A stretch of DNA of 59,655 nt, counting the filler, from Diploschistes diacapsis (lineage: Eukaryota): the NCBI GenBank assembly GCA_023645945.1. It is 7 parts of 7 records of this genome, joined end to end, with 100 filler letters (N's around TTAATTAATTAA, not from the genome) between each part and the next. Parts side by side here need not be neighbours in the genome. Positions count along the whole stretch, not along the records: positions 1 to 8,446 come from JALAIB010001150.1; 6 more parts are not named here. The stretch is one strand, 5' to 3'. Each line of letters begins with the position of its first letter. The stretch's first letter is position 1. A model generated the notes under the pieces. It worked only from the letters and a program-made list of their open reading frames with translations, made no database searches and was not told where the DNA came from. The translations under genes and the position numbers were made by a program. Positions 1,272 to 40,156 of the stretch are shown in pieces.

Positions 1272-3888
1272 ATGAAAATTAGCCGCTTTCGCAATACGAC
1301 GCCTTCTATATACGAAGAAGCACGCCTGGGGTCGGCAAAAGACACTTCACCTGGCGGGGAGCTTAAGACCAGGAGAATTGTTCGTGACTTTTCTAAGGAG
1401 CACGTATGCAGATTTTGTGGAAAGCCACATGCGCGGAGGACAGACCTCAAGTAGCCTACGTTCTATAAGAACTGAATAACCCAGAAACTGACCACCTGGT
1501 AGTCTTCACTTGAAAAGGGTCCATGAGCGACCCCATGCCTGTACAAGTTGTACCCAAAAGTTTGGACTGAAGTCCGATTTGGAGAAGCATGTAGCGAAGC
1601 ATTATCGGGACAATCGCTTCTTCTCCTGTACATGGCCTGGCTGCACTAGTAAAGGTTTCTCACGGAAACAGCATCTGAAGAGGCATATCGAGCGTTTGCA
1701 CGTAAAAGAAAATGCCGAGACTCAGCAAGCTCACAATCATGGGATTGACAGTGTTCAGGAGATTCTTGAGCTGTCAAAGCGCGATGCCAAAGCCAAAGAG
1801 AAGAGGTTGGCAAAAGAGTACACAATCATGGCCTCCTTTCATGAAGCCATCCTCCGCAAGGACGTCCCTGAATTGGAACTGTTATTCTCAGAAAATAAGC
1901 TCGACATTAATTATGTAGATGCTAATGGAAACACTGCAGTGCATCTTGCTGCAGAACATGGAAGCGCCCCCGTTCTACAATTTCTTTTGTCAAAAGGTGC
2001 AGATCCAACCCCACCAAACAGATCCTCGTTACGGCCGTTATACATTGCCGCACGTTTCGGGCACGATGAAGCCTTAAAGGTTCTGCTAGACGCCGGTTGC
2101 ACGGACTTTAACAACCAGGCTTCAAAAGAAGCAATCCATAAAGGGCAGGAGAACATCATTCGAATACTGTTGGCACGTGGGGTCGTTGATCGAAAACGTG
2201 AGGAATTGGTATCTCGAGCTATTGAGAACGGAAATGAAGAGATGTGTAAGACGATATTAGAGTTTGGAGTACCTGTGAATTCTGGAATTCATTGTCGGGA
2301 TGAGCTTGTTCATGCTGCATCAGGAGGCCATGCATCAATCACGAAAATTTTAGTGAACCATAAGAGCTATAGTGATTCCAAGCTCTCGAAGGCCATAGCA
2401 TTGTTTCAAGCTTGCTTAGGAGGTCATCTCGAAACGGCGAAGGTACTTCTTACGGCGGGTGCTGACCCCAATGGCAATCCCACCAGGCATCATCCCACGC
2501 CGCTTGAAGCTGGTTTTGAGAAACGGCACATGGAAATTATCTCCTTGCTGTTGAGTTTCGGTGCACAACCTCATTTTCAATACGAAGACAACAAGGAGAG
2601 TGTTATTGAAAGGGCTTCAGCTTCTGGCGACCTCTCGATGGTGAAACTTCTCCTCAGTCAAGATGTTCGAGAAACGGAGAGCTCTGACACGCAAGCGGCT
2701 CGGAGCTCCTTAGACACTGCCTTGGCTGCTGCTGTGACACATGGACAGCGTGAGATGGTATCTTACTTGCTGGAGAGAGGAGCAAATGTCAAATCTTGTG
2801 GTGAAAAACCATTACGTGCGGCTTGCAAAGCAGGCTATATTGAATGTATAAGGCCACTCTTGAGGTATGGTGTTGACCTCGATCTTCAAGATCAAAAAGG
2901 TGTCACAGCGCTCATGCTTGCTTCTCGGCATCGTAGTGAAGGCTGTTTGAAGCCTCTGCTTCAGCATGGGGCCAACGCCAATCTTCAAGATGAATCCGGT
3001 GACACAGCACTCATAATTGCTTGTCGTTATAATGATACAGGCAATGTGGAGCTTCTACTTCAGCATTGGGCCAACGCCAATCTTCAAGATAAATCCGGTA
3101 ACACAGCACTCATGCGTGCTTCTGTGCATGGTATAAAAGGCTGTTTGGAGCTTCTACTTCGGCATGGGGCCAACGCCAATCTTCAAGATAAATCCGGTGA
3201 CACAGCACTCATGATTGCTTGTCGTTATGATAATCCAGGCAATGTGGAGCTTCTACTTCAGCATAGGGCCAACGCCAATCTTTATGACAAACGAGGCAAA
3301 ACAGCGCTTATTCTTGCTTCTGAACATAGATATACGGACCATGTAAAGCTTTTGCTTCAGTATGGGGCCAACGCCAATCTTCAAGATGAATCCGGTGACA
3401 CAGCACTCATGATTGCTTGTCGTTATGATAATCCAGGCAATATGGAGCTTCTACTTCAGCATGGGGCCAACGCCAATCTTCAAGATAAATCCGGTGACAC
3501 AGCACTCATGATTGCTTGTCGTTATGATAATTCAGGCAATGTGGAGCTTCTACTTCAGCATGGGGCCAACGCCAATCTTCAAGATAAATCCGGTTACACA
3601 GCACTCATGCGTGCTTGTCGTTATGATAATACAGGCAATGTGGAGCTTCTACTTCAGCATGGGGCCGATGCTGATGTTTATGACAAGCGAGGCAACACAG
3701 CGCTTATGGTAGCTTCATATTACAAATGCGAGGGTTGTGTGAGGCTTCTACTTGAGCATGGCGCAAACACCAATTATCAAGATTGTGAAGGCAAGACAGC
3801 CCTCACTCTTGCTATGGAATCCGGTGCGGGAAATATTGCACAGCTCCTGCACCAGCACGAAGTTAATCTGTACAACTCTGCTTTCTAA
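1272..3888 (+). CDS. 3x C2H2 zinc finger plus long ankyrin-repeat protein
   Basis: ATG 1272. Intron 1451-1502 (GTAGCC..CTGAC..TAG) completes finger 1 HVCRFCGKPHARRTDLNLHLKRVH. Fingers 2-3 are CTSC..HVAKH and CTWPGC..HIERLH, followed by many GxTAL/PL-type ankyrin repeats to TAA 3888. Confidence 0.9.
2863..3852 (+). repeat. Intragenic 99-bp tandem array encoding ~10 ankyrin repeats with high internal conservation
   Basis: Motif CAGCATGGGGCCAACGCCAATCTTCAAGAT (with variants) recurs at 2962, 3061, 3160, 3259, 3358, 3457, 3556, 3655, 3754, an exact 99-bp period. First and last units are more diverged. Confidence 0.95.
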
Positions 3889-4271: not shown

Positions 4272-5826
4272 TTAAACTTCCAAATCTAGCTTTTCATGCT
4301 TCCACTTTCTGCCTCCCTCGCCTGCATGGTATTCACCGGCGCTCTGTCCAGATCCATCAACAATGTACTTGTAGATCGTCAGCCCTTCCAGGCCGACGGG
4401 GCCCCTTGAATGGATCTTGTTCGTGCTGATGCCGACCTCGGTGCCGAAGCCGAACCGCATGCCATCCGACATCCTAGTGCTAGTATTCCAAAAGACGCAA
4501 GCGCTATCGACCCCGTTTTGGAACCTGCGCGCAATGCTCCGGGAAGCCGCGAGGATGGCGTCTGTGTGCTTCGAAGAGTGAGAGTTGATGTGCGCAACTG
4601 CAAGGTCGACAGCTGCCTCCGGGGACGATGTCTGCGGAATGGTCTTGATGGCAAGAACGAGGTCCAGGAACTCGGTGGAGAAGTCCGATTCCTCTGCCTC
4701 CTGAAGAAGGGCAGCATGAGCCTTGTCTAGTGAAACAGATAGGGCTGCTTTCGACTTCTCGTCGCATCGTAGGGACACTCCTTGCTGTAATAGGTTCAGG
4801 GCAACAGCGGGTAGGATCGTGGCCAATACAGCCTCATCGACGAGCAAAGTTTCCAGCGAGTTACAGGCTGCGGGATAGCCAAGCTTAGCATCTGAGATGA
4901 CCTTGACGGCCATGTCTAGATCGGCGTCGGCGTGGATGTATGTGCTGCAGAGACCATCTGCGTGGCCCAGAACGGGGATCTTGGTGTTGTTCTTGATATA
5001 GGTGACAAGCTCATTTGACCCGCGAGGTATGACAAGATCAATGTACTTGTCCAGAGAAAGCAGCTGTGGTATGACATCCCGGGTCTTGAGAAGCTGAATT
5101 GACGCATTCGGCACCTCAGTCCGACGGAGTGCTTCTGAGATTACGGTAGAGATGGTCACAAAAGACTCGGTAGATTCCTTACCGCCTAGAGATTATGAGA
5201 TCGTGTCGCTAAGGCACGCTCATAGAACACACCTTTTAGGATCGCCGCATTCCCAGATTTGATGGCCAGGGAGGCTATATTCGCGATGACCTCGGGGCGT
5301 GCTTCGAAAATGATCAACAAGACGCCAATAGGGGCAGTTACTCGTTCAAGTTCCAGACCATCATCAAGGCGTGTCCTTAATGTGACTTTACCAACTTTAC
5401 TTGTGCCTACTCCACGGGATGCTCTGCTTTTCAATTGCTATTGCCATTGAAGGCAAAGCCCCCTCCGGAGTTCCTGGCACATCGTGAGCTTGTAGTTTGA
5501 CAGTTACCTCGAGACTAGAGCTCACTCGGATCTTCCAGGTTTCGAACATCCAGGATCCCCTGCAGCATATCCTCCCATTTCCCTTTCCTACTTAAATCTA
5601 GTCTTTTGAGTATACTCTGACTCAGTCGGCCATCAACTGTGGCTTGGGTAGCTGCTCCAACATCTTGCGCGTTTGCGGCAAAAATCTGGTCTTTAGCACC
5701 TGCAAGGGCAGCATGGATAGCTGTCAATGCATCATTCCGTGCCTTGACAGGCAGTATAGCAATGCTGCGTGCTGATATAGACGCTGCCTTGGCAACTTCC
5801 AAGGGTGAAGAGTCCGTTACCGACAT
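4272..5826 (-). CDS. PRO2: Gamma-glutamyl phosphate reductase (glutamate-5-semialdehyde dehydrogenase), 3 exons
   Basis: Motifs [73 protein letters not shown]. Exons ~5826-5526, ~5394-5233, 5185-4272. The first acceptor is uncertain. Confidence 0.93.
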
Positions 5827-11643: not shown

Positions 11644-14005
11644 TCAACGCTCGAACATGCTGACCTTGTCACGGGTTGCCACTTCCTCCAGGCATTCCAT
11701 GACCGGAACGTAAAGCTGTCCGCTCCGGGCTGAAGTGTAAATCTTCGTGATCAACGACCCAATCGTCGGCACTTCCCGCATCACCTCTTCGGGCCCACGA
11801 GGGGTTTGCAGGTGCTCGATACTGATGAAAGGGACGCCGAGGTGATCGCGGACGAATGTGTACATACGCTTCGACGCGAGACCAAGCAGGGGTGTTGCAT
11901 CGCCGTGCTCAAAGTAGTGCTCTCGGTTGCTCATGTAGATTTCGTAAACGAGAGGAGGGCAGCGGCTGGTGAACAGCCTGATGGAGCCCAGGAGCTTGGT
12001 CGGGTCAGCATCGGGCGCAGAGTCCAGAATCATGGCTTGACAGAAGTTGGCGGCTAGCCTGAATCGTTCTTTGCTGTCGGAAGTGGTCAGCCTATCGATC
12101 TTTCTGATGAGGCGGTTCCATAGAGCCAGGCCAAAGTCCTTGCGCTGGGCGTCGGTCGCTGACTTGACCATCCATGGGAACACCTCGTCGATCAAGTCTT
12201 GGAATCGAGGATGCAATTGCTCCAGAAAACGTTCGTGCATTGCTCTCAGGTCAAAGGCTTGGCACAGCGTCAGCAGGTAAGCCGAAGCGAGCTTGGAGAG
12301 GATCTCCAGGGCGGTGTGGGTGTATCGCGCAGATATGAGCGCCAGAGAATTGAGAGCTTGATTGCCCATCTCAGCTGTCTGGACGTGGTTTACCGGGTTC
12401 GCGAGGAATCCAAGCTCGGATTGCAGAGCCGCAACCATGATGTCGACACCCTTCATCAAAAAAGACTGGCTCGGCTCGTCAGGAACCAGGTTTGGGGGCA
12501 AGCCGTGGTTCGTAGCAGGGTTGATGAGCTCGGTGCATTGAGCAAAGAGCATCCTTCCAATGCCCTCGATTCCATGACGAGTCTTCTCCATGGCAGATGT
12601 TATGGCTTTGGCTTGGAAGTTCCCACCATGTAGCGCTCTTCCTTCCGGGTTGATCAGGGGATTGTCCGTGACAGAGTTGCATTCGGTGGTAACCTGTTTG
12701 TGAGCAAGGACGAGGTCTTCGAGGATTGGACCAATCCATTGAGATGCAGTTCTGATCGAATACCGGTCCTGTCGCAGAGAGTCTGTGGCCGAGCCATCAT
12801 TGAAACTGGCTAATTTTGAGCCACCAAGGAAGCGATATATATTATGCGCTGACTCGACCTAGAAAAAGCTCTGAGCACAACAGAAGCTTTGAATGTGGGG
12901 ACACATGGGGAGCACGCTCACCTGCCCAGGATGGGGTCGCACTTGGCCAAAAAAGGGATCGAAGCTCTCGCTCGTCCCACACAATGCCTCAACGCTCATG
13001 GCAGTGAGTAATTGAGAGAGTACAGCCAAGCCGTGTGCATCATGTATGGCCAAAGCTCCGACAGCAGCCGACAGAGCAGTACCGTTGACGATGGACAAAC
13101 CTTCCTTTGCGGCGAGTTTGATCGGTGTGATGTTGGCTTCCGCGAGTGCTCTGCTCGCAGTTGTAACGTAGCGATGCTGCGACTTTCGATCGCCCGTCCA
13201 GACCGTCAGGTTGGCTTCGCCCTGGATGACACCACCAATGTACGACAGGGGGCTCAGGTCGCCAGATGCAGAGATGCTGCCGTGCAAGGGAATTCGAGGG
13301 ATTACATCCTTCTGCAACAAGTCCAACAACCTTTCGACAACCTCTGGCCGGACAGCCGAGTGGCCATGCACAAGCGAATTGATCCTGATGACGATGGCTG
13401 CGCGCACCCAAGGTTCTGGCATGCAAGTAGATGTGATGGGATCTTCCATTGGCAAGGCGCTGCTGAACATGGCCGTTAGTCCTTGCGGGGGGTGAGAGCC
13501 ATGTGCACTATTGACGCCATTCGCAAACGGGGATCCGTGGCCGAGCACCGGAGTTGCGAGGACACCATACTGGAGCATGCGGATAAGAGAAGACTGGAGG
13601 TCCTCTACCTGGTCGGTTCGAGTGTCGGCGCTGCCACCGAAGCCCGTGTTGACCCCTGCCGGTAGCTGTGAGCCAAACAGCATGGAAGGGGGGAGAGTAC
13701 GGCCTTACCATATATGATCATGCCCTTATCGAGGCTATCCTCTAAAGCAATGCGACTTTCATTCAGCTTGGAGAGTGATTCAGAATCAACGCCAACGGCT
13801 GCTCCATGTCTACAGCCATCAGCAACGGTCTGCGTGGTCGTTAAAGGAAATCTTACCGCGCGATAGCAATGACGGTAGCAATATCAAGGTTGCAGCCGTT
13901 CACATTCGCTGCTGCACTACCTGCATCACTAGGCGTAATCCTTTTAATGAAGCTCTTCCATGAGCTCAGGGCGATGGAGCTATGGTGACCACGTACAGTC
14001 TCCAT
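11644..14005 (-). CDS. PAL: MIO-dependent aromatic amino-acid ammonia-lyase, probably phenylalanine ammonia-lyase, 4 exons
   Basis: IYG|VNTGFGGSADTR, MIO motif GSISASGDLSPLSY, AKEGLSIVNGT, RPHPGQ, LRQDRYSIRTASQWIGP, NSVTDNPLI, HGGNFQA, HVQTAEMGNQALNSLALISAR. Confidence 0.93.
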
Positions 14006-18750: not shown

Positions 18751-21544
18751 CTATGCACCGTATTGTATCTGTGAACGCCGAAGCCTACCAGGTCCAGGCC
18801 CGATATCAATCCTGCTAAAATCTTCGCTAAGATTACCACCGCTCCAATCTTCCTGCTCGCCCCCAAACGGCACTTTGGCGGGCACAGGCGGTGGCCCAAC
18901 TGGCGCGCCTCGTCCATACGTTGGGCTGTTGCCGTATCCGTAGTTGGGATGATGCTCCCTTAGCGGCTGTGAGGGTGGAGTGTGCTGGTCCATTGGAACA
19001 GCGGGCGATGAATTGAAATGAACAGGTATAGGAGGGGCGTTCATTTTCTGTAACCGGTTTCTCCCTGCTTGAGACGGTGAAACATCATTGACAGAAGAGG
19101 CATGTGCGACAGGGGCCATTGGCTGGTAAGGCATGGGCTGAGGTCGTGCGACTGACTCTCGAGGGGACCTCCTTTGTGCACTCGATGGTAATGATTGTGT
19201 CCCTGTTGTGTTGTGTCGAAACTTTACATTTATCTGGTGAGATTTTCGTGGAGCCTTTCGCTCAGGCTCTGGAGCCCAAGTGTCCGCTGGCAGGTGATCC
19301 GAAGGATCGACGACACGACCCGCCGAGTTGACTATAGGGCCGGATTCGAGTTGCTCTTCCTTTTCGCGGTCGCGAGTTGCTTCTCTGATACTCTCGGGGG
19401 TATTGTATTTGGGTGCCGGAACGTTGATGCTCTTCGCAGCGCTTAAATTCGGGTTGAACTGCTCGTAAGAGTTCGGGGAGAATGGCGCTCCTCTAAACCC
19501 AGAGTCTCGGGGGGCAGATTCGGGCTGAGGACTAACTGATTTTCGAGCGGGTGTCCTTGGGTCAGGACTGACAGCTCTTGGCTTTGCTATCGGTACAGAT
19601 GCACGGTGCACTCTTGGCAGTTCTGGTTGACTGGGCCATCCTTGCTGACTGCCATTATGGCCCTGCGGAGTCTGGCCCGCGTAGGGAAGTTGACGAGACA
19701 CTGACCTGTCGTAAATGGAAGTCGTGTCGTACCCTGGACCAAACTGATTACTCATATGATGACTTCGACGGTATGCATTAGGTATTCTTGCACTGTCGTA
19801 TCCATCGGGCGTAACTGGGCCATATGGTTGAGGCGTATTAGGGAACGATTGTGAGTGAGGAACATTCGAGTCATCCTCGAAAGGTGGAAATCGCTCGTCG
19901 TTTCTAGGTCTTCGAGGGTCGTCTCGCTGTTGGTTTGATGTGACGCGAGGGTCGTATTCGCGGGGATAATTAGAAGACAAAGGCGCTGATGCAGTCGACA
20001 GTCTCGACTCGGAAGGTGATACTGCGTATCGTTGATCTGGTTCTGAAAAGTCCGTGCTTGATTGGGCCAAAGGACTACCAGATGTGCTTCCTCGTAACTG
20101 CCCGAGAGGCAGAGGTGCGGGTGCGGACTGGCGATGAGGGAGAGCAGCACTATAACCATTGGAAATGCGAGAATGCGGAGGCGGAGGTGGAGGCTGCGGC
20201 GCACCATTGTTTTGAGATTCGTAGGATTCATAAGGCAGATACTGCGAAGCATCTCCAGCAGAGTGGTGTCGGGACTCCTCAGGATATTCGTCTGTGTATT
20301 GCTGATTGTAGGGGTCATCCACGGATTGACTTCGTAGGGGACTAGGGAGATGAGGTTGACTGTTCTGGTATGGCTGTTTGGACTCTCGCGGTTCGAACGG
20401 TTGCGCCTGCTCTGGCAAACGATCGTACTGTGGTAGAGTATAGGAGGGGCTCGATCTAGCAGAGTTGTAGTACTTTGGAGTTTGTGCAGCACTGGACCGA
20501 TTTGTTCTTGGTGTATGAGGTGGTAACTCCGGTAGCTCTAAATCACGGGAGGATGAGTCGTAGCTCGGCTGCACGTCCTGAGGACTTGATGGATATGGGG
20601 GATTCCTGTATTGCTCTGGCTCTTGTGCCATGTACGCTCTGTCATGTTGCAGAGTGCTAACGGAATGGGGGGCGAACGAATCCGACGCCCTTGGTTCAGT
20701 ATCATCAAGGTTGTGGGATACGGTCGAATGGTCATCAATGTAGATATCAGATTGTGCACTATCGTCATAGTTGCTTGGGGCATATTGCGACATAGTAACC
20801 TGCTCTTGCGCTCGAAACATTGACGGAGTGAAGCTCGAGTCGGCAGAGGTGCCAGGTAGAGGTCGGGGTCCGCGAGACGGCGTCAGCTGCGTGACTGGTT
20901 GGGTTGGATTGGCAGGTAGCGGCCTCCTCTTTACGGCCTTGCTCTGTCGGGACCCGTTCGCAGCATCTCTCTCTGTACCAGCCGACGCAGCCTCAACAGC
21001 ACCCTCGAGTTTCTCCTCACGAGGGCGAGAATCGTAGTAGGTGAGCTCAATCCTTATTTCACCTGCATACCTTCCTCTACAATTCAGGGTATGCCACATA
21101 TCATTTCTTCCACCTCCTGGGGCTAGGACAGGATCCAACTGCACCCATGCCTCCCCGATAAGATCCGTCTTCTTGTCGTCGTTAAAGACAGAAACCTTGA
21201 GCTGATGGTAGTCCAGTGAGTCGTGTACCGTAAATCGGAGCTCCTGATCCCTAATGCAATGTTAGTTGATTGTTCTTGTGCCATTTCGATCGCGGCCGGT
21301 AAATATTTTACCACTTTGGTGTCTGGCCTCCTCGTTTGTCGGTCTCCGTCTTCTTGGCCTCCTTTCCTAGCCTTGCAGCGCAATAAGGATCCTGTTTGCC
21401 CATCGTCTTGCGGTTCGGCAGATTCTTGGCTCGATCGATAATGACCACCAGCGTTCCGATTTCGGGTCCGTCGACAGACATATCCGCGAAAATGCCCGCG
21501 GTGTGCCCGCCCGACACGGCCGCCTTCTGGAGCTTGTTGGCCAT
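18751..21544 (-). CDS. N-terminal C2-domain cytokinesis protein, Inn1/Fic1 (ingression protein) family, long Pro-rich tail
   Basis: GTLVVIIDRAKNLPNRKTMGKQDPYCAARLG..DKRGGQTPKW|DQELRF..VFNDDKKTDLIG. Intron 21311-21251. PxxP-rich C-terminus (PPPVPAKVP). Confidence 0.82.
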
Positions 21545-22375
21545 GCTGAGCCCCTGGAATGGTAGAATAGAAAACGAATGGAATGGAAGCACTCGAAGGC
21601 CGAGAAAGAAAACGTTGAATAGAAAATAACTGCTAAATTTTCCACGGGGAGGGTCAAAAGTAGGTCCCAAAGCTATCTTATTGGTAACTAGAGTGGTTGG
21701 GTGACATGGAGGGGCTGGGCATTGCTGCTAGGATTGCGATGGACACATAGCCTATCAATTGACGCATTGGACAACAACGATTTTTCTGTTTTTCTGTCAA
21801 TTTGACAGAAGTCGTTTTGTGTTCATTTGATGACCGGTTTACAACGCTCCAGGAGGATGGGCCAGGCCAATACCGCTGTTTACTTTGTATTTCCAGTTTG
21901 GGGGGGTTTTTGTTTATTGATGTCAGCGGCCCGGAGCCATGTTTGACGAGGTCTTGGCTCCAAGAATGATACGACAGGCGACAGGCGATACTAATAATAT
22001 ATATCTCTTTCAAGAGCGCAAAGGATGCTTCAGATCAGCTATAACATAGAGCCTCAAGTATTATTTCAGACTCGTTGTGTGCAGTCCATGAAACCTCTTC
22101 CAGAGTACGCGTAATGAGTGAGCCCCAGCGAGCACAGCCACAAATGGCTGTGCTTCGTATACAGATGGATGACTAAGATGGATGACTAAGATGATTCGAT
22201 TCGGAAGGCTTGGCAAAAAAAACCTTGAAGCTTTGAAGCTTGCGTCATGTAAATCCAATGTTGCCCCGCGTAAGTTGATGGACCCTAATTCACGAACACG
22301 TTCAAGTGGAAAAAGCTTCACGTTCAAGTTCCATCCTGCCTGATATCGACTAAAAGCTGCAACCATATCAGCATA

Positions 22376-34671: not shown

Positions 34672-36550
34672 TCATGCCACCTGCACTTCGCTTGCAAGTT
34701 CCTTTCCCTCTCCAAAGCTAGCCTTCTGTTCACCATTGGCCTTCTTCGCCTCAGCCTCCTTCTTCTTCCTCTCCGCCCACTGCTTGCTCGCCGATCTTCC
34801 CCTCTCCGCCGCCTGAGCGCGTGCTTTCTTCGTGGCCTCCATTTTCTCCTTGAGCGCCTTATGCTGCTCCTCCTCTTGTGCCTTGAAGCTGTTCACAGTA
34901 CTCTTGCCACGGACACTACCCGATTTAGCTGCTGGGATGGTCGCAGTAACTGCTTTGTTCGGCGATGACACCGAGCGAGATGGGAGTGTGACTGACGGCG
35001 ATGGGCGGAAAGTCGAAAGTCGTGCTGCCGGAGCAGTTGGCTTCGACACAGGCCCATCTACAACAGCTTTGGTGCTCGAGACTCTTGGTTTGGGGCCCGT
35101 CTTTGCGATTATAGGAACATCAATTCCCCCAGTCACCTTCCCGGCTTGCGCAAGACTAAGCCTAGCCCTGCTCGCTGCATTCTGACGCGGTAATGTTGCA
35201 GAGCCAATGCTGGACACGCGACCATTTGGTGCCGGTCTTGCCTTGAATTCTCGGTTGAACTTCTTTTCCTCTTCCTCCTTCTTAAGACGATCTTCGCGCT
35301 GCGCTTTGAGCTTTGCGGAGATGGCTTCGCCAGGAAGTGTAAACGTTGAGCGTGTAGGTGCCTTGGTGGATTTCGTGGGCACGAAGGGAGGGTTGGTAAC
35401 CGAGGAGACGCGAGGTTTCTGTGGCTTTAGCGCTGGCTTTGTGGCTGAGTTGGGCGGTTTGGAGGGAGTGGCTCTGGTGGACCTTGGCCGTGTTGGTTGA
35501 GAGCCCTTCTGAACGGGGCCTGCTGATTTGGTAAGGGAGGGCTGCGAGGGCTTCTTGGCGATGGCTGGACGACTTCCAGCCGGTTTTGCAGCAGAAGGCT
35601 TCTGCAAGGAGGCTTTTGGCATGCTGACTCTGCGCTCGCCAATAGGCTTTGATGTGTTGGCTTTGGGCTTTGTTGCCTCTTTCTTTGAAATTAACGGTTT
35701 GACGGTGCCCGAGTTCTTGGATGCAGGCTTTCGTTCCTTAGTAGGCGCGAGTGCCTCTGGAGCCACAATGAAAGATTCGCCAGCTTTCTCAATGGCCTCT
35801 TGGAGGGCATCAATTGCCTCAACACTGTCCTCAATGCGCGGGCTCTTTTCAGGCGAAACCTTGGTTACACCCGTATCTGGAGTAGCCATATTTTCCTCTT
35901 GAACTTCCTCTGCAATAGGTTCTGCATTCATGATTTTGGCAGGCGAGCGACTTCCAATGGCTGCGACGAAAGAATCCTCCGTAGGATTCTGCTTAGTTGC
36001 GGATTCAGGGGCTTTATGAATCTTAGGGTTGAAGCGGGGTGTTTCAGATTTCGGCGACAACTTCCTTCTGGCAGCGCGAACCGCCTTTGAAGGCGGTGTC
36101 TGGGGTCTTCGGTCCAAATATGGTGCGCGAAAGTTCTCTGTTGTTGATGTGGTTAGCCCGCGCTCTAATTGACGCAAAAAAAAGTTCATCAGTACCATCT
36201 TTCCCTCCGTTCCTAAGCTCTTGGCACGCTTCTTCGATGGCTGAAGTACTCGAGGAACTCTCGTAGTCGTCTTCAAGAACCATTGGGTCTCTCCCGGGCC
36301 GATCATTCTCCTTATTGACAGGCTTCTTCTTGCGTCCGACGCGTTTATCTTTCTTTGCCGAGACGGCCTTTCCAGGTTTCTTCATGTCGACATCTGGCTG
36401 AATCCTGGGCGGTGCTTCCTCGTTCAGCAATATCTCGCCTAGCGGAGCGCGGTCGCCGCCTTTCTGGGGTGTCGAAGGCAATGGCACTGCAGCTGCATCT
36501 TCCAAGTCTTCAAATATAGCGTTGCGCAAAGCAGCGCGCGTGCGAGGCAT
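34672..36550 (-). CDS. Basic disordered protein with TPX2-like FKARP motif and C-terminal coiled coil (putative microtubule-associated), 2 exons
   Basis: Intron 36195-36138 (GTACTG..GCTAAC..CAG) joins the two track ORFs in frame. Contains D-box-like RAPLGEI, a KEN box (NKEND), and PTRSTFTLPGEAISAKLK..EFKARPAP. Confidence 0.75.
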
Positions 36551-37734: not shown

Positions 37735-40156
37735 TCAAACCATCATGCTCCTCCTCCTAGCCGCCGCCCTCTCCGCCCTCCCCAGCGTGCCATTCCTCGC
37801 TATCTCGCCATTCGCCTCCCCCTTCTCCTCGTTCCCTCTATCAGCTTTCAAGCCTCCGGCGGCACTGTTCGACCTTGCTAGCCCCACAGCATGTTCTCTT
37901 GGTTTCGGTCCAGCCTTGATTTCGGACATGCTCGAGTGCCTTCTTGAAAATCTGCTCGACGAGTTCGATAATCTCCCTGGGACGTGGCCCTGGCTTGGAA
38001 CGTGCTCCTTCACTAGGTCCTTGGGGTCCGCCTTGAGGGGGGAAGAATCGTTGAACTCGTATATATCCAGATTCGTCTTCTCGCCGCTCAGTCTGCGCTG
38101 GACTTCGGCTGCTTTTCTGGCGCGGGAGAGACGCTCTTGCGAGCCCGCTACGAGGGCGGCGATTGTGCTTTGCGAAACGGTGCTGCTGGGGGCTGCGGGA
38201 AGCGATGGCGCGGACATGTCCTCGGAGCCGCGCTGAGCGATGGAGCTACGTCTTCGGCGGTCCGTTAGTACGGTCGACGGGAGCTCGGTGGGCGGAGGGT
38301 GCGAGAACTTGTTACTAAGAGGGCTAGGGGGCTCCACAGGCTCATGAGATTTGCTTATGGGGAGCTTCTTCCATTCTGCCGTTTCGGGCTCGTCCTCTTT
38401 CTGGATGAACATGGTAGAGTCTGCCTTCGTCGAGTTTTCATTTGAAGTGACGTGGGTCGAAGCCTTTGCGCTCGTAGCAACGGCGTCGACTAGCTCCTTG
38501 CCTGGTCTCCGCATCTTGTCACGAAGGCTTGGCTCGGCATAACTGACTGCTGCTCGTTGTCTTCGGCTTGGTCGACCGCCTTCATTGGCTTGCGAACCCA
38601 GATCAGCCGGTGGTGGAGTATCTCGAGAGTCTGGCCTTAAAGAAGGCTGAGAGTCCATGGGCGAGAACAAGTCTGTTTGCGGAGGTGCTGGAGTAATCGG
38701 GGCAAGCTCCTTAGGCCCTGCTGGAGCATCTATTTCTTTAGTAGCAGATGTCTCCCGCTGGCTTGTTTTCTCAGCGCTAACTTTCTTTCTAGTTTGCTCC
38801 TGGACTTTCAGCTTCGGAGGAGCACTGTTCTTGTCCAAGTCTTTGGCTTTCAGTAGACCGCCTGCCTTGGGTTTTACGGGAGATACGATTGGGTCTGTGT
38901 TGACACTTTCTGATCACTTGTCAGCACAAAGACTGACAAATAGAAGCGCATAGACTCACTCTCTCCAAGTGCTTTCCTTTGGGGCTTTAGGACAACTGTG
39001 TCTCGCTTTCGGTCGAGGGATGTCTGCTCCGAAGCCATTTCCGGGAGTGCTCCGGCGACAGAGTTTTGGTAATGGCTTGGCTTTGTAGCAGATCCAGCTC
39101 TACGGTTAAAAGCAAAACCATCCAGATCCGATTGTTTGGGTTGGACGTTGGGAACGTCTTCATCCCGACTGCTCAACTTTCGCTTTGCACCAGCTCTTAA
39201 GGGGTGTCCTAATGCAGACGAGAGACCATTCGATTCTTCCAATTCCTTGCTGGGCGCTCGATCTTCGGTATCCTTTGTCGCCCTGATAACCGAACTTACC
39301 CTGCGTTTTCGCCTTGTCTCAAGGTTTGCAAAGCCAAGGTCTCGCGGGACATCGGAGCCTTCTTGCCCTTTGTTTATATTGGGCGGAGCAGCACAGGGAC
39401 TTTTATCGCCCAAGTCATGCTTGATAGGATCACCTTCCTCAAAGTGTGCAACAGGTGGCGGCCCTAGCTCTGGTGATTCCGTAATAATGCCGAGGTCAGC
39501 AGCGGTATTTTTAAGTTCCTCAGCACTACTCTGTGTCAGCATTGTTTCTTTCATTCCCACTGTAACATACTCGAGAGTTCGCCTTGGAAAGTACTTCCCC
39601 TCCACTATTGGCGCCAGGCCGGTAACCTCGGGTCCACACATCGTGTTCCTCCAGTTGCGCTGCTGTGTCGGCGAACGTTGAAATGACCGCCTTCTCGTAG
39701 TCTTTGGTGCGGGGGTAGGCTTGGGTCTTTCCGTATGAGCTTTATCCAGCAGGACCATCAACTCATTCAATTCGGCAACTTTCGTGACGAGCTTCTCCTT
39801 AACTGAACCGACATTCTGAAGTGCGCGCCTGCCGAGATCCCTCTCAAGCTCTTGCCTAAGCTGATTATTCTCCTCTCGCAATGTGATGTTATCCGAGAGT
39901 AATTGCGAGCGATCGGCTTCTAAGTTTGCGATTCGTATATTCAGCGTTGAGTTTGACCTAGGGAAGAATTAACCTGAGAACTCAAAAAACTGCCGTAGGA
40001 AAGACTGACTTTGCCAGTTCCCTGTTCTGTCTTATGAACCTGCGCTTCACTAGAGCACCTTTGTTAGCTGGCCAAATCTTGATCCAAACGATAAACCGAA
40101 GACGCACAAGCTTCAACCGATTCGCCGATCACAGGTGCTTCGTTCAATCGTGCCAT
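37735..40156 (-). CDS. SGO1: Shugoshin, multi-exon
   Basis: N-terminal MARLNE..|LKRRFIRQNRELAK|SNS coiled coil and C-terminal SGO motif RPSRRQRAAVSYAEPSLRDKMRRP. Confidence 0.92.

Follow-up and report, generated by a model that had tools for sequence, protein, structure and literature searches.

Three C2H2 zinc fingers and about twenty ankyrin repeats, half of them in an array with a 99-bp period, in a predicted protein of the lichen-forming fungus Diploschistes diacapsis

The window analyzed in this work, i.e. the whole stretch of 59,655 nucleotides (filler included) joined from seven parts of the Diploschistes diacapsis assembly GCA_023645945.1, contains close to its beginning a + strand gene, whose predicted product of ~854 aa combines three C2H2 zinc fingers with a long solenoid of ankyrin (ANK) repeats. 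The gene is composed of two exons separated by a short intron (Table 1), and most of its length is covered by a continuous open reading frame (ORF) of 792 aa (positions 1510-3888; P0001). The order of domains, namely three fingers, divergent ankyrin repeats and an array of ankyrin units with a 99-bp period, with no nucleotide-binding and oligomerization domain (NOD), had been proposed in an earlier sequence-only reading of this DNA; the ORF, the Pfam matches, the search of the Protein Data Bank (PDB) and the AlphaFold2 (AF2) model all agree with it. We regard this as a real and intact gene of a lichen-forming fungus.

Exon 1 ends two bases into a codon, and the unspliced frame is closed by an in-frame TAG at 1452-1454. 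Removal of the segment GTAGCC ... CTGAC ... TAG joins the two exons in frame and completes finger 1, from which we infer a 52-nt intron at this position. The public counterpart of the gene, a hypothetical protein of 808 aa from a D. diacapsis metagenome-assembled genome (MAG; P0002), is 100% identical to the window protein and passes from "...DFSKEH" straight to "EILELSK...", which corresponds to a 355-nt intron at 1404-1758 (GTATGC at 1404, CAG at 1756-1758) that removes all three fingers. The same model includes extra upstream exons from ~230 and ~1248, whose value is doubtful. According to the available parts of the paper that describes the MAG (PMC9907504), it was assembled with MEGAHIT or MetaSPAdes from 2x151 Illumina reads and its genes were predicted with funannotate, other lichen species supplying the expressed sequence tags and protein models that served as evidence; those parts do not mention RNA from D. 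diacapsis itself as prediction evidence. The two introns predicted in the flanking gene are short (~50-57 nt each), which favors the 52-nt intron over the 355-nt one. The public annotation of this gene is most probably wrong, the fingers having been lost from the model.

All three fingers display the classical C2H2 ligand pattern in tandem, finger 3 with 13 residues between its Cys and His pairs. A strict C2H2 regular expression recovered only one of the three (finger 2), because finger 1 is split by the intron and the spacing in finger 3 is 13 residues. The phmmer search with fingers 2-3 against PDB chains reported 157 distinct sequences at E<=1, headed by ZBTB20 (3.9e-10) and WT1 (2.6e-9) and followed by GLI, YY1, Zif268 and TFIIIA. 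The window protein resembles the three- and four-finger DNA binders WT1, Zif268/EGR1, ZBTB20 and YY1 in its ligand spacing, in the TGEKP-like sequence that links finger 1 to finger 2 (here ERPHAC, ahead of finger 2), in a C-x4-C finger as known from WT1 and in having basic or His residues in the base-contact positions. It differs from them in that finger 3 carries an extra residue before the conserved Phe, a His replaces the conserved aromatic residue of finger 1, a 20-repeat ANK solenoid follows the fingers, and the Pfam gathering scores are not reached. The base-contact positions of finger 3 read R/Q/H/R, which under the recognition code would presumably specify a G-rich triplet; the fingers would most likely bind specific nucleic-acid sites, probably in G-rich DNA.

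A collinear homolog was found in Thelotrema lepadinum, which we take to be a member of Graphidaceae, the same lichen family as Diploschistes. In an exhaustive HMMER search with residues 1-457 as a query, residues 14-456 were aligned in one stretch with this hypothetical protein (P0196, 656 aa), and BLASTP reported a collinear match of 653 columns with 32% identity (E 1e-91). The identity is highest in fingers 2-3 (56%, 29/52) and lower in the linker (22%), the divergent ankyrin repeats (34%) and the array (32%). The extra residue of finger 3 is also present in P0196, where the residues at -1/+2/+3/+6 are identical; for fingers 2 and 3 together, seven of the eight canonical base-contact positions agree, the remaining one being K/R. 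The P0196 model begins with "MCSLKFG", inside finger 2, and retains finger 3; it is probably truncated at the N-terminus too.

Fingers followed by ankyrin repeats were therewith recovered in a second species; P0196 lacks the internally conserved array. Among the 150 matches listed by the exhaustive HMMER search, mostly giant ANK proteins, P0196 was the sole clearly collinear protein of another species. Inspection covered P0196; P0247 (best stretch 62-383) and seven other listed proteins, whose best stretch starts at query residues 72-99, are 1,796-4,472 aa long, and in no case does the match begin inside fingers 2-3. A profile search with the fingers and the linker gave six matches, of which C2H2 was combined with ANK only in P0196 and P0002, the other four, among them P0272 of a Chrysothrix MAG, being C2H2 proteins that lack ANK. 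A word-based search with residues 1-130 returned the window's own protein only (1 match among 123 candidates), and the whole-protein search listed 120 proteins, 119 of which are generic ANK proteins (22-41% identity), none with a C2H2 family. The metagenome scan with the non-array part yielded 63 pattern matches and no confirmed one, the ESM Atlas contributed generic ANK clusters only (best score 0.92), and the open-access library searched yielded no account of a C2H2-ANK family in fungi or lichens. We propose a Graphidaceae C2H2-ANK family, whose putative hallmarks are the collinear fingers 2-3, a linker with the motif S-x-R-x-AKA-x-EK (common to the window protein and P0196) and the ANK solenoid. 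Judged from these two members the family is fast-evolving, and within the searches made it has been seen so far in two Graphidaceae genera only.

Further evidence on the finger region comes from two sequencing runs, X2 and X3, whose contigs are ~95% identical to the gene; the counts given here and below refer to the differences listed, which for the X2 contig over the splice region are 24 out of 26 and which for all contigs together leave out 101 rows. X2 substitutions are concentrated in the predicted intron (6/52 vs 3/150 in the coding bases just downstream, Fisher p=0.010), and with the 6 differences in the 179 bases of exon 1 included, the comparison of the intron with both exons gives p=0.009. 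The GT and AG of the intron are unchanged in X2 and X3, and the branch motif CTGAC is replaced by CTAAC in both. The three X2 changes in exon 2 near the intron are K>R, K>R and a synonymous one, the sole X2/X3 change within finger 1 is R>K at 1438, and none of the differences listed affects a Cys/His ligand (15 exon and intron differences up to 1652 were classified). Four coding indels in X2/X3 are multiples of three (1314 -3, 2797 +9, 2925 +3, 2928 +3): the 3-nt deletion at 1314, found in both runs, preserves the frame of exon 1, and the insertions at 3122 (1 nt) and 3125 (2 nt) sum to three. A 1-nt deletion is located at 1059, upstream of the gene. The clustering of substitutions, the three-fold indels and the conservation in Thelotrema argue that the fingers are coding and constrained.

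If the public model were right, 1404-1758 would be a genuine intron, the product a plain ankyrin protein and the fingers a relic. It is true that the GTATGC/CAG intron keeps the frame and that the GTAGCC donor of the 52-nt intron is weak. However, 101 codons would have remained open by chance while encoding three complete C2H2 fingers, these fingers would happen to be the part best conserved with respect to Thelotrema (56% vs 22-34% elsewhere), and the X2 substitutions cluster in 1451-1502 only. Moreover, the prediction drew its evidence from other lichen species, as far as the available text of PMC9907504 describes it, and the Thelotrema model, starting in finger 2, keeps finger 3. We consider the public model very improbable.

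The linker between the fingers and the ankyrin repeats is a possible nuclear localization signal. Downstream of it the protein is built of ankyrin repeats: Ank_2 was matched in Pfam with E 5.7e-152 in 12 stretches, and the AF2 model, obtained from a 46-row alignment (mean predicted local distance difference test score, pLDDT, 86.2; predicted template modeling score 0.71), reveals ~20 helix pairs in residues 143-791, with pLDDT ~98 over 2881-3870 and <50 in the fingers. Foldseek identified the 24-repeat solenoid of AnkB (4rlv) as the top match (E 9.5e-29, 727 columns). Tandem 33-residue solenoid units, the defining feature of ankyrin proteins, were thus found by Pfam, AF2 and Foldseek alike. 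As in the membrane-binding domain of Ankyrin-B/R (24 repeats), the repeats form one long continuous solenoid, whose inner groove can take several partners in the ankyrins; however, the identity of 28% denotes a repeat-level likeness only, and the N-terminal module and the biology are unlike. Within the divergent ankyrin part, the X2 and X3 contigs both lose the match at 2472-2497 and then continue with similar letters unlike those of the window, which gives the impression of a short segment, common to both, that was exchanged or inserted.

Another idea is that of inhibition in cis, as in NF-kB p105/p100, in which the ankyrin repeats would fold onto the fingers and the linker and keep DNA binding or a nuclear localization signal masked, to be freed upon signaling or processing. 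In p105/p100, too, a DNA-binding module precedes the ankyrin repeats in one chain, the basic linker motif is conserved in both homologs, and the AnkB solenoid 4rlv was, according to the title of the structure, crystallized with an autoinhibitory segment bound. On the other hand, the protein exhibits no Rel/IkB homology, no processing signal was identified in it, and the AF2 model contains no confident contact between the poorly predicted fingers (pLDDT <50) and the ankyrin repeats. We attach little probability to this idea.

The C-terminal array comprises ten ankyrin units, classified here as A, B, C and E. The exact 99-bp period noticed earlier was upheld: Tandem Repeats Finder reported a period of 99 (7.9 copies, 81% matches) together with a higher-order period of 396 bp at 89%, and a repeat search found 9 copies with a spacing of exactly 99 in eight cases. 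The claim that the ~10 repeats are nearly identical holds for half of them only, since the five B-type units (starts 2981, 3179, 3377, 3476, 3575) share 88-98% DNA identity, whereas the remaining five show 45-83% identity to the B-type. At the protein level the mean identity is 85% (76-94%) among the B units and 59% among all ten, and the best contiguous 100-aa self-match at a lag of 33 residues reaches 79%. The B units vary at 11 codons, 10 of them nonsynonymously, a bias that is not significant (binomial p=0.20), and only some of these codons map to the classical binding face (canonical positions 2 and 5). When nine units are compared, variation is strongest at positions that include canonical ANK positions 2, 3, 5, 13, 14 and 33 of the binding face. 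A mutation bias of the repeat-induced point mutation type was considered and rejected, as the B units differ from their consensus by 10 transitions and 7 transversions.

P0196 contains no internally similar units, and units of the "TALMLAS" type occur in it at the homologous position, which indicates that the array grew in place and was not captured from a NOD-like receptor (NLR). Of the 335 query residues in the array 210 could be aligned, so that 125 are without a counterpart and P0196 has about four units fewer. The absence of a conserved array from the Thelotrema protein makes the amplification specific to the Diploschistes lineage, in which, by this comparison, it took place in situ; the presence of both the fingers and the ankyrin repeats in P0196 suggests that the conserved function of the family is independent of the array. 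The C-terminal solenoid of Diploschistes was lengthened recently, with at least four units added relative to Thelotrema, probably as 99-bp units and a 396-bp block of four units underwent tandem duplication and gene conversion.

The depth of the sequencing reads bears on the length of the array. In a further run, X1, which may be the source sample, the contigs break inside 2988-3637, and the array pieces (3191-3660) exhibit a k-mer depth of 1.9-4.5x the flank, while their 31-mers occur only 1.0-2.0x in the window; the piece 3236-3391 is unique in the window, yet has a depth of 2.26x. This suggests that the assembled array is too short or that there is a second locus or paralog with identical units. 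One may also ask whether the near-identical units are an assembly artefact of mis-joined or collapsed short reads, as the excess depth in the array and the breaks of X1 contigs could imply. We find this quite unlikely: no 99-mer is repeated and the longest exact repeat is 73 nt, so that reads of ~150 nt are able to order the units as assembled; the X1 pieces show only 1 difference from the window; the array of P0002 is identical (though perhaps not independent of the window); and an excess of depth speaks for more copies, not for fewer or none.

Within the array the X2 contigs diverge from the window (loose ends at 2995 and 3813, two weak joints), while the flanks are ~95% identical. X3 offers no contig over 2887-3774 at 85% likeness, which speaks neither for nor against such a divergence. 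The one-codon insertions of X2 at 2925/2928 and 3122/3125 fall at the same loop position of two A-type units, and the extra codon makes those units 102 bp long, so that the exact 99-bp period is broken there. All this hints that the array may be changing faster than its flanks. However, the X2 array pieces are short and many of them fit two places, so that repeat-number polymorphism is not established from such contigs.

No nucleotide-binding domain accompanies the repeats, as the sequence-only reading had stated. Among the 16 Pfam families matched by the protein at E<=0.1 there is no NACHT, NB-ARC or AAA, and the Walker A motif [AG]xxxxGK[ST] is absent from the protein and from the six frames of positions 1-1600. 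A degenerate NOD between the fingers and the repeats was considered and rejected, since the AF2 model leaves no unassigned globular stretch there, in agreement with Pfam. The profile check of the whole architecture was thus overwhelming for ANK and empty for the NOD, with C2H2 below the gathering thresholds. Fungal NLRs and other signal transduction ATPases with numerous domains (STAND) are recognized by superstructure-forming repeats and a central NOD with a Walker A motif; the window protein possesses the former, as ankyrin repeats, and lacks the latter.

The definition of high internal conservation (HiC) used by Dyrka 2014 is, in the available portion of PMC4986451, that repeats are more than 85% identical to one another over a total of at least 100 aa. 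Here the mean identity of the five non-contiguous B units (165 aa) is 85%, and 79% is reached in the best contiguous 100 aa, so that the array borders on the definition. The same portion of PMC4986451 reports HiC arrays in 10% of NLR ANK domains, attributes 60-70% of the highly conserved ANK/TPR/WD arrays of dikarya to NLR-like proteins and describes ANK NLRs of Podospora as polymorphic in repeat number and positively selected on the concave face. As 30-40% of the dikarya arrays accordingly lie outside NLRs, such an array outside an NLR is not exceptional. With the HiC arrays of fungal NLRs, as described there, the window array shares exact-period ankyrin units of 33 residues, several of them near-identical in DNA, a mostly nonsynonymous variation that includes the binding face, and signs of unit duplication or conversion. 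Unlike them, it is not attached to NACHT/NB-ARC or a known effector domain, only half of its units are highly similar, 85% over 100 aa is not clearly attained, and the Thelotrema homolog has ordinary divergent repeats. Zinc fingers are not foreign to NLRs: the available text of PMC12258605 lists C2H2 fingers in 34 Sordariales NLRs, mostly C-terminal, and zinc-finger domains of all types together as the sole N-terminal domain in five Sordariales NLR cases. The coexistence of fingers and NLR-type repeats in one protein is hence not unprecedented, but the Sordariales proteins keep the NOD, and in none of them, as far as that text shows, does a C2H2 finger adjoin canonical repeats.

These comparisons bear on the suggestion, made in the sequence-only reading, that the array is a recombination-shuffled, reprogrammable ligand sensor of the NLR style, wired to a DNA-binding module so that recognition would change transcription. 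We judge it unlikely. The suggestion draws on the 88-98% DNA identity of the five B units, on the 10 nonsynonymous codons out of 11, on variable positions that include the binding face (a pattern also reported for NLR ANK arrays in the available part of PMC4986451), on the departure of X2 contigs inside the array (2995, 3813; insertions at 2925/2928 and 3122/3125) between flanks of ~95% identity, and on the C2H2 fingers of the 34 Sordariales NLRs (PMC12258605, available text). However, the nonsynonymous bias is not significant (p=0.20), the HiC criterion is only bordered on, and the 30-40% of dikarya arrays outside NLRs (PMC4986451, as far as available) make such an array unexceptional. In addition, the Thelotrema homolog lacks a conserved array and that of Diploschistes was built from ancestral units in place, the window neighbors are housekeeping genes, repeat-number polymorphism is not demonstrated by the fragmentary contigs, and W or R at a structural glycine suggests drift rather than tuning. 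A related speculation is that of a NOD-less recognition protein, whose fast-turnover array would read a variable ligand of a symbiont, a competitor or a non-self mycobiont and whose DNA tether would convert the reading into transcription; array units might possibly be exchanged with another locus, and the excess k-mer depth would then be accounted for. We think this improbable as well. If true, it would represent a one-polypeptide alternative to NLR signaling in a lichen fungus.

We lean, with modest conviction, towards a simpler function, in which the three fingers would hold the protein at specific nucleic-acid sites, probably in G-rich DNA, and the long groove of the 20 repeats would be a platform on which partner proteins dock and are thus brought to the finger-bound sites. 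The whole protein would then be a nuclear, DNA-bound scaffold or recruiter of co-regulators, and the amplification of units would lengthen or retune the platform in Diploschistes. Proteins with a DNA-binding domain and ankyrin repeats in one chain are well known, e.g. NF-kB p105/p100 (RHD), CAMTA (CG-1) and Swi4/Mbp1 (APSES). They resemble the window protein in the N-terminal position of the DNA-binding module and in C-terminal ankyrin repeats for partners or action in cis, and differ from it in an unrelated DNA-binding fold, in 4-7 repeats vs ~20 and in the lack of any sequence relationship. ANKZF1/Vms1 also combines a C2H2-type finger with ankyrin repeats; membership of this family was rejected, as VLRF1 is not among the Pfam matches and the number and order of repeats are unrelated.

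Several observations weigh against the scaffold function or against the gene model on which it is founded. Only one homolog with the C2H2-ANK architecture was found (P0196), and the Pfam scores for the fingers are sub-threshold (zf-C2H2 13.6 bits vs 25.2; Zap1_zf1 17.3 vs 27.2). C2H2 fingers can bind RNA or protein too, and the public splice choice is also in frame, so that a finger-less form could be an alternative isoform. The X2 differences listed comprise 11 nonsynonymous vs 8 synonymous changes (those at 2041 and 2042 share one codon), and in two array units the conserved ankyrin glycine is replaced by W or R; the many nonsynonymous changes and the altered glycines are compatible with relaxed constraint.

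Three fingers followed by ~20 ankyrin repeats are an unusual combination of domains, and none of the evidence makes it an immune-type sensor; neither is anything known overturned by this gene. If our interpretation is right, the gene would represent a hitherto undescribed family of putative regulators, at present confined to lichen fungi, which would be invisible to domain databases because in both public models the fingers are missing or cut short and the one finger that is left falls below the Pfam thresholds. It would also provide a natural case of recent amplification and homogenization of ankyrin units in a non-NLR protein, with an unamplified homolog for comparison, which could be used to ask whether internal repeat conservation alone signals a recognition function. 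The array would offer a concrete locus for studies of repeat-number polymorphism in lichen mycobionts, which are genetically hard to study.

Table 1. Positions of the features of the C2H2-ANK gene and of two further genes, counted along the window
Feature	Position	Strand	Remarks
Exon 1	1272..1450	+	start codon, ~45 N-terminal residues, first half of finger 1 (CRFC from 1407)
Intron, putative	1451..1502	+	52 nt; GT 1451-1452, CTGAC branch-point motif 1488-1492, AG 1501-1502
Exon 2	1503..3888	+	remainder of finger 1, fingers 2 and 3, linker, every ankyrin repeat; uninterrupted ORF; stop 3886-3888
Zinc finger 1	1407..1524	+	C-x2-C-x12-H-x4-H; CRFC in exon 1, H-x4-H in exon 2
Zinc finger 2	1540..1602	+	C-x2-C-x12-H-x3-H; regular expression match, PDB matches, conserved in P0196
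Zinc finger 3	1627..1701	+	C-x4-C-x13-H-x4-H, one extra residue; helix RKQHLKRH; aligns to WT1 fingers
Linker, helical, basic	1705..1899	+	SKRDAKAKEKRLAK; long AF2 helix, residues 82-115
Divergent ankyrin repeats, ~10	1900..2880	+	Pfam Ank families; helix pairs 143-452; 34% identity to P0196
Array of ten ankyrin units	2881..3870	+	period of exactly 99 bp (33 codons); units arranged as A B A B C B B B C E
Three contiguous near-identical B-type units	3376..3672	+	other two B-type units: 2980-3078, 3178-3276
Aldehyde-dehydrogenase-family ORF	4275-5192		taken as gamma-glutamyl phosphate reductase
Aromatic amino acid lyase (PAL/HAL-type)	11647-13704	-	two ORF pieces

For the rest of the window, 63 of the 106 ORFs of at least 110 aa were scanned, shorter nested or opposite ORFs having been dropped by eye, and none of the 63 matched NACHT, NB-ARC or ANK. 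Apart from the two genes included in Table 1, housekeeping matches comprise COP9 subunit 3, a bicarbonate/borate-type transporter, an ABC transporter, Tom20, Exo84, shugoshin, a WDR26-like protein, V-ATPase subunit A and Rictor. Two long open frames on the - strand, 34675-36381 (569 aa) and 38877-39968 (364 aa), match no Pfam family at E<=1e-5, and the same applies to a frame of 836 aa at 18754-21261 (-). The latter adjoins a C2-domain fragment (21311-21727), with which it may form one large unannotated gene.

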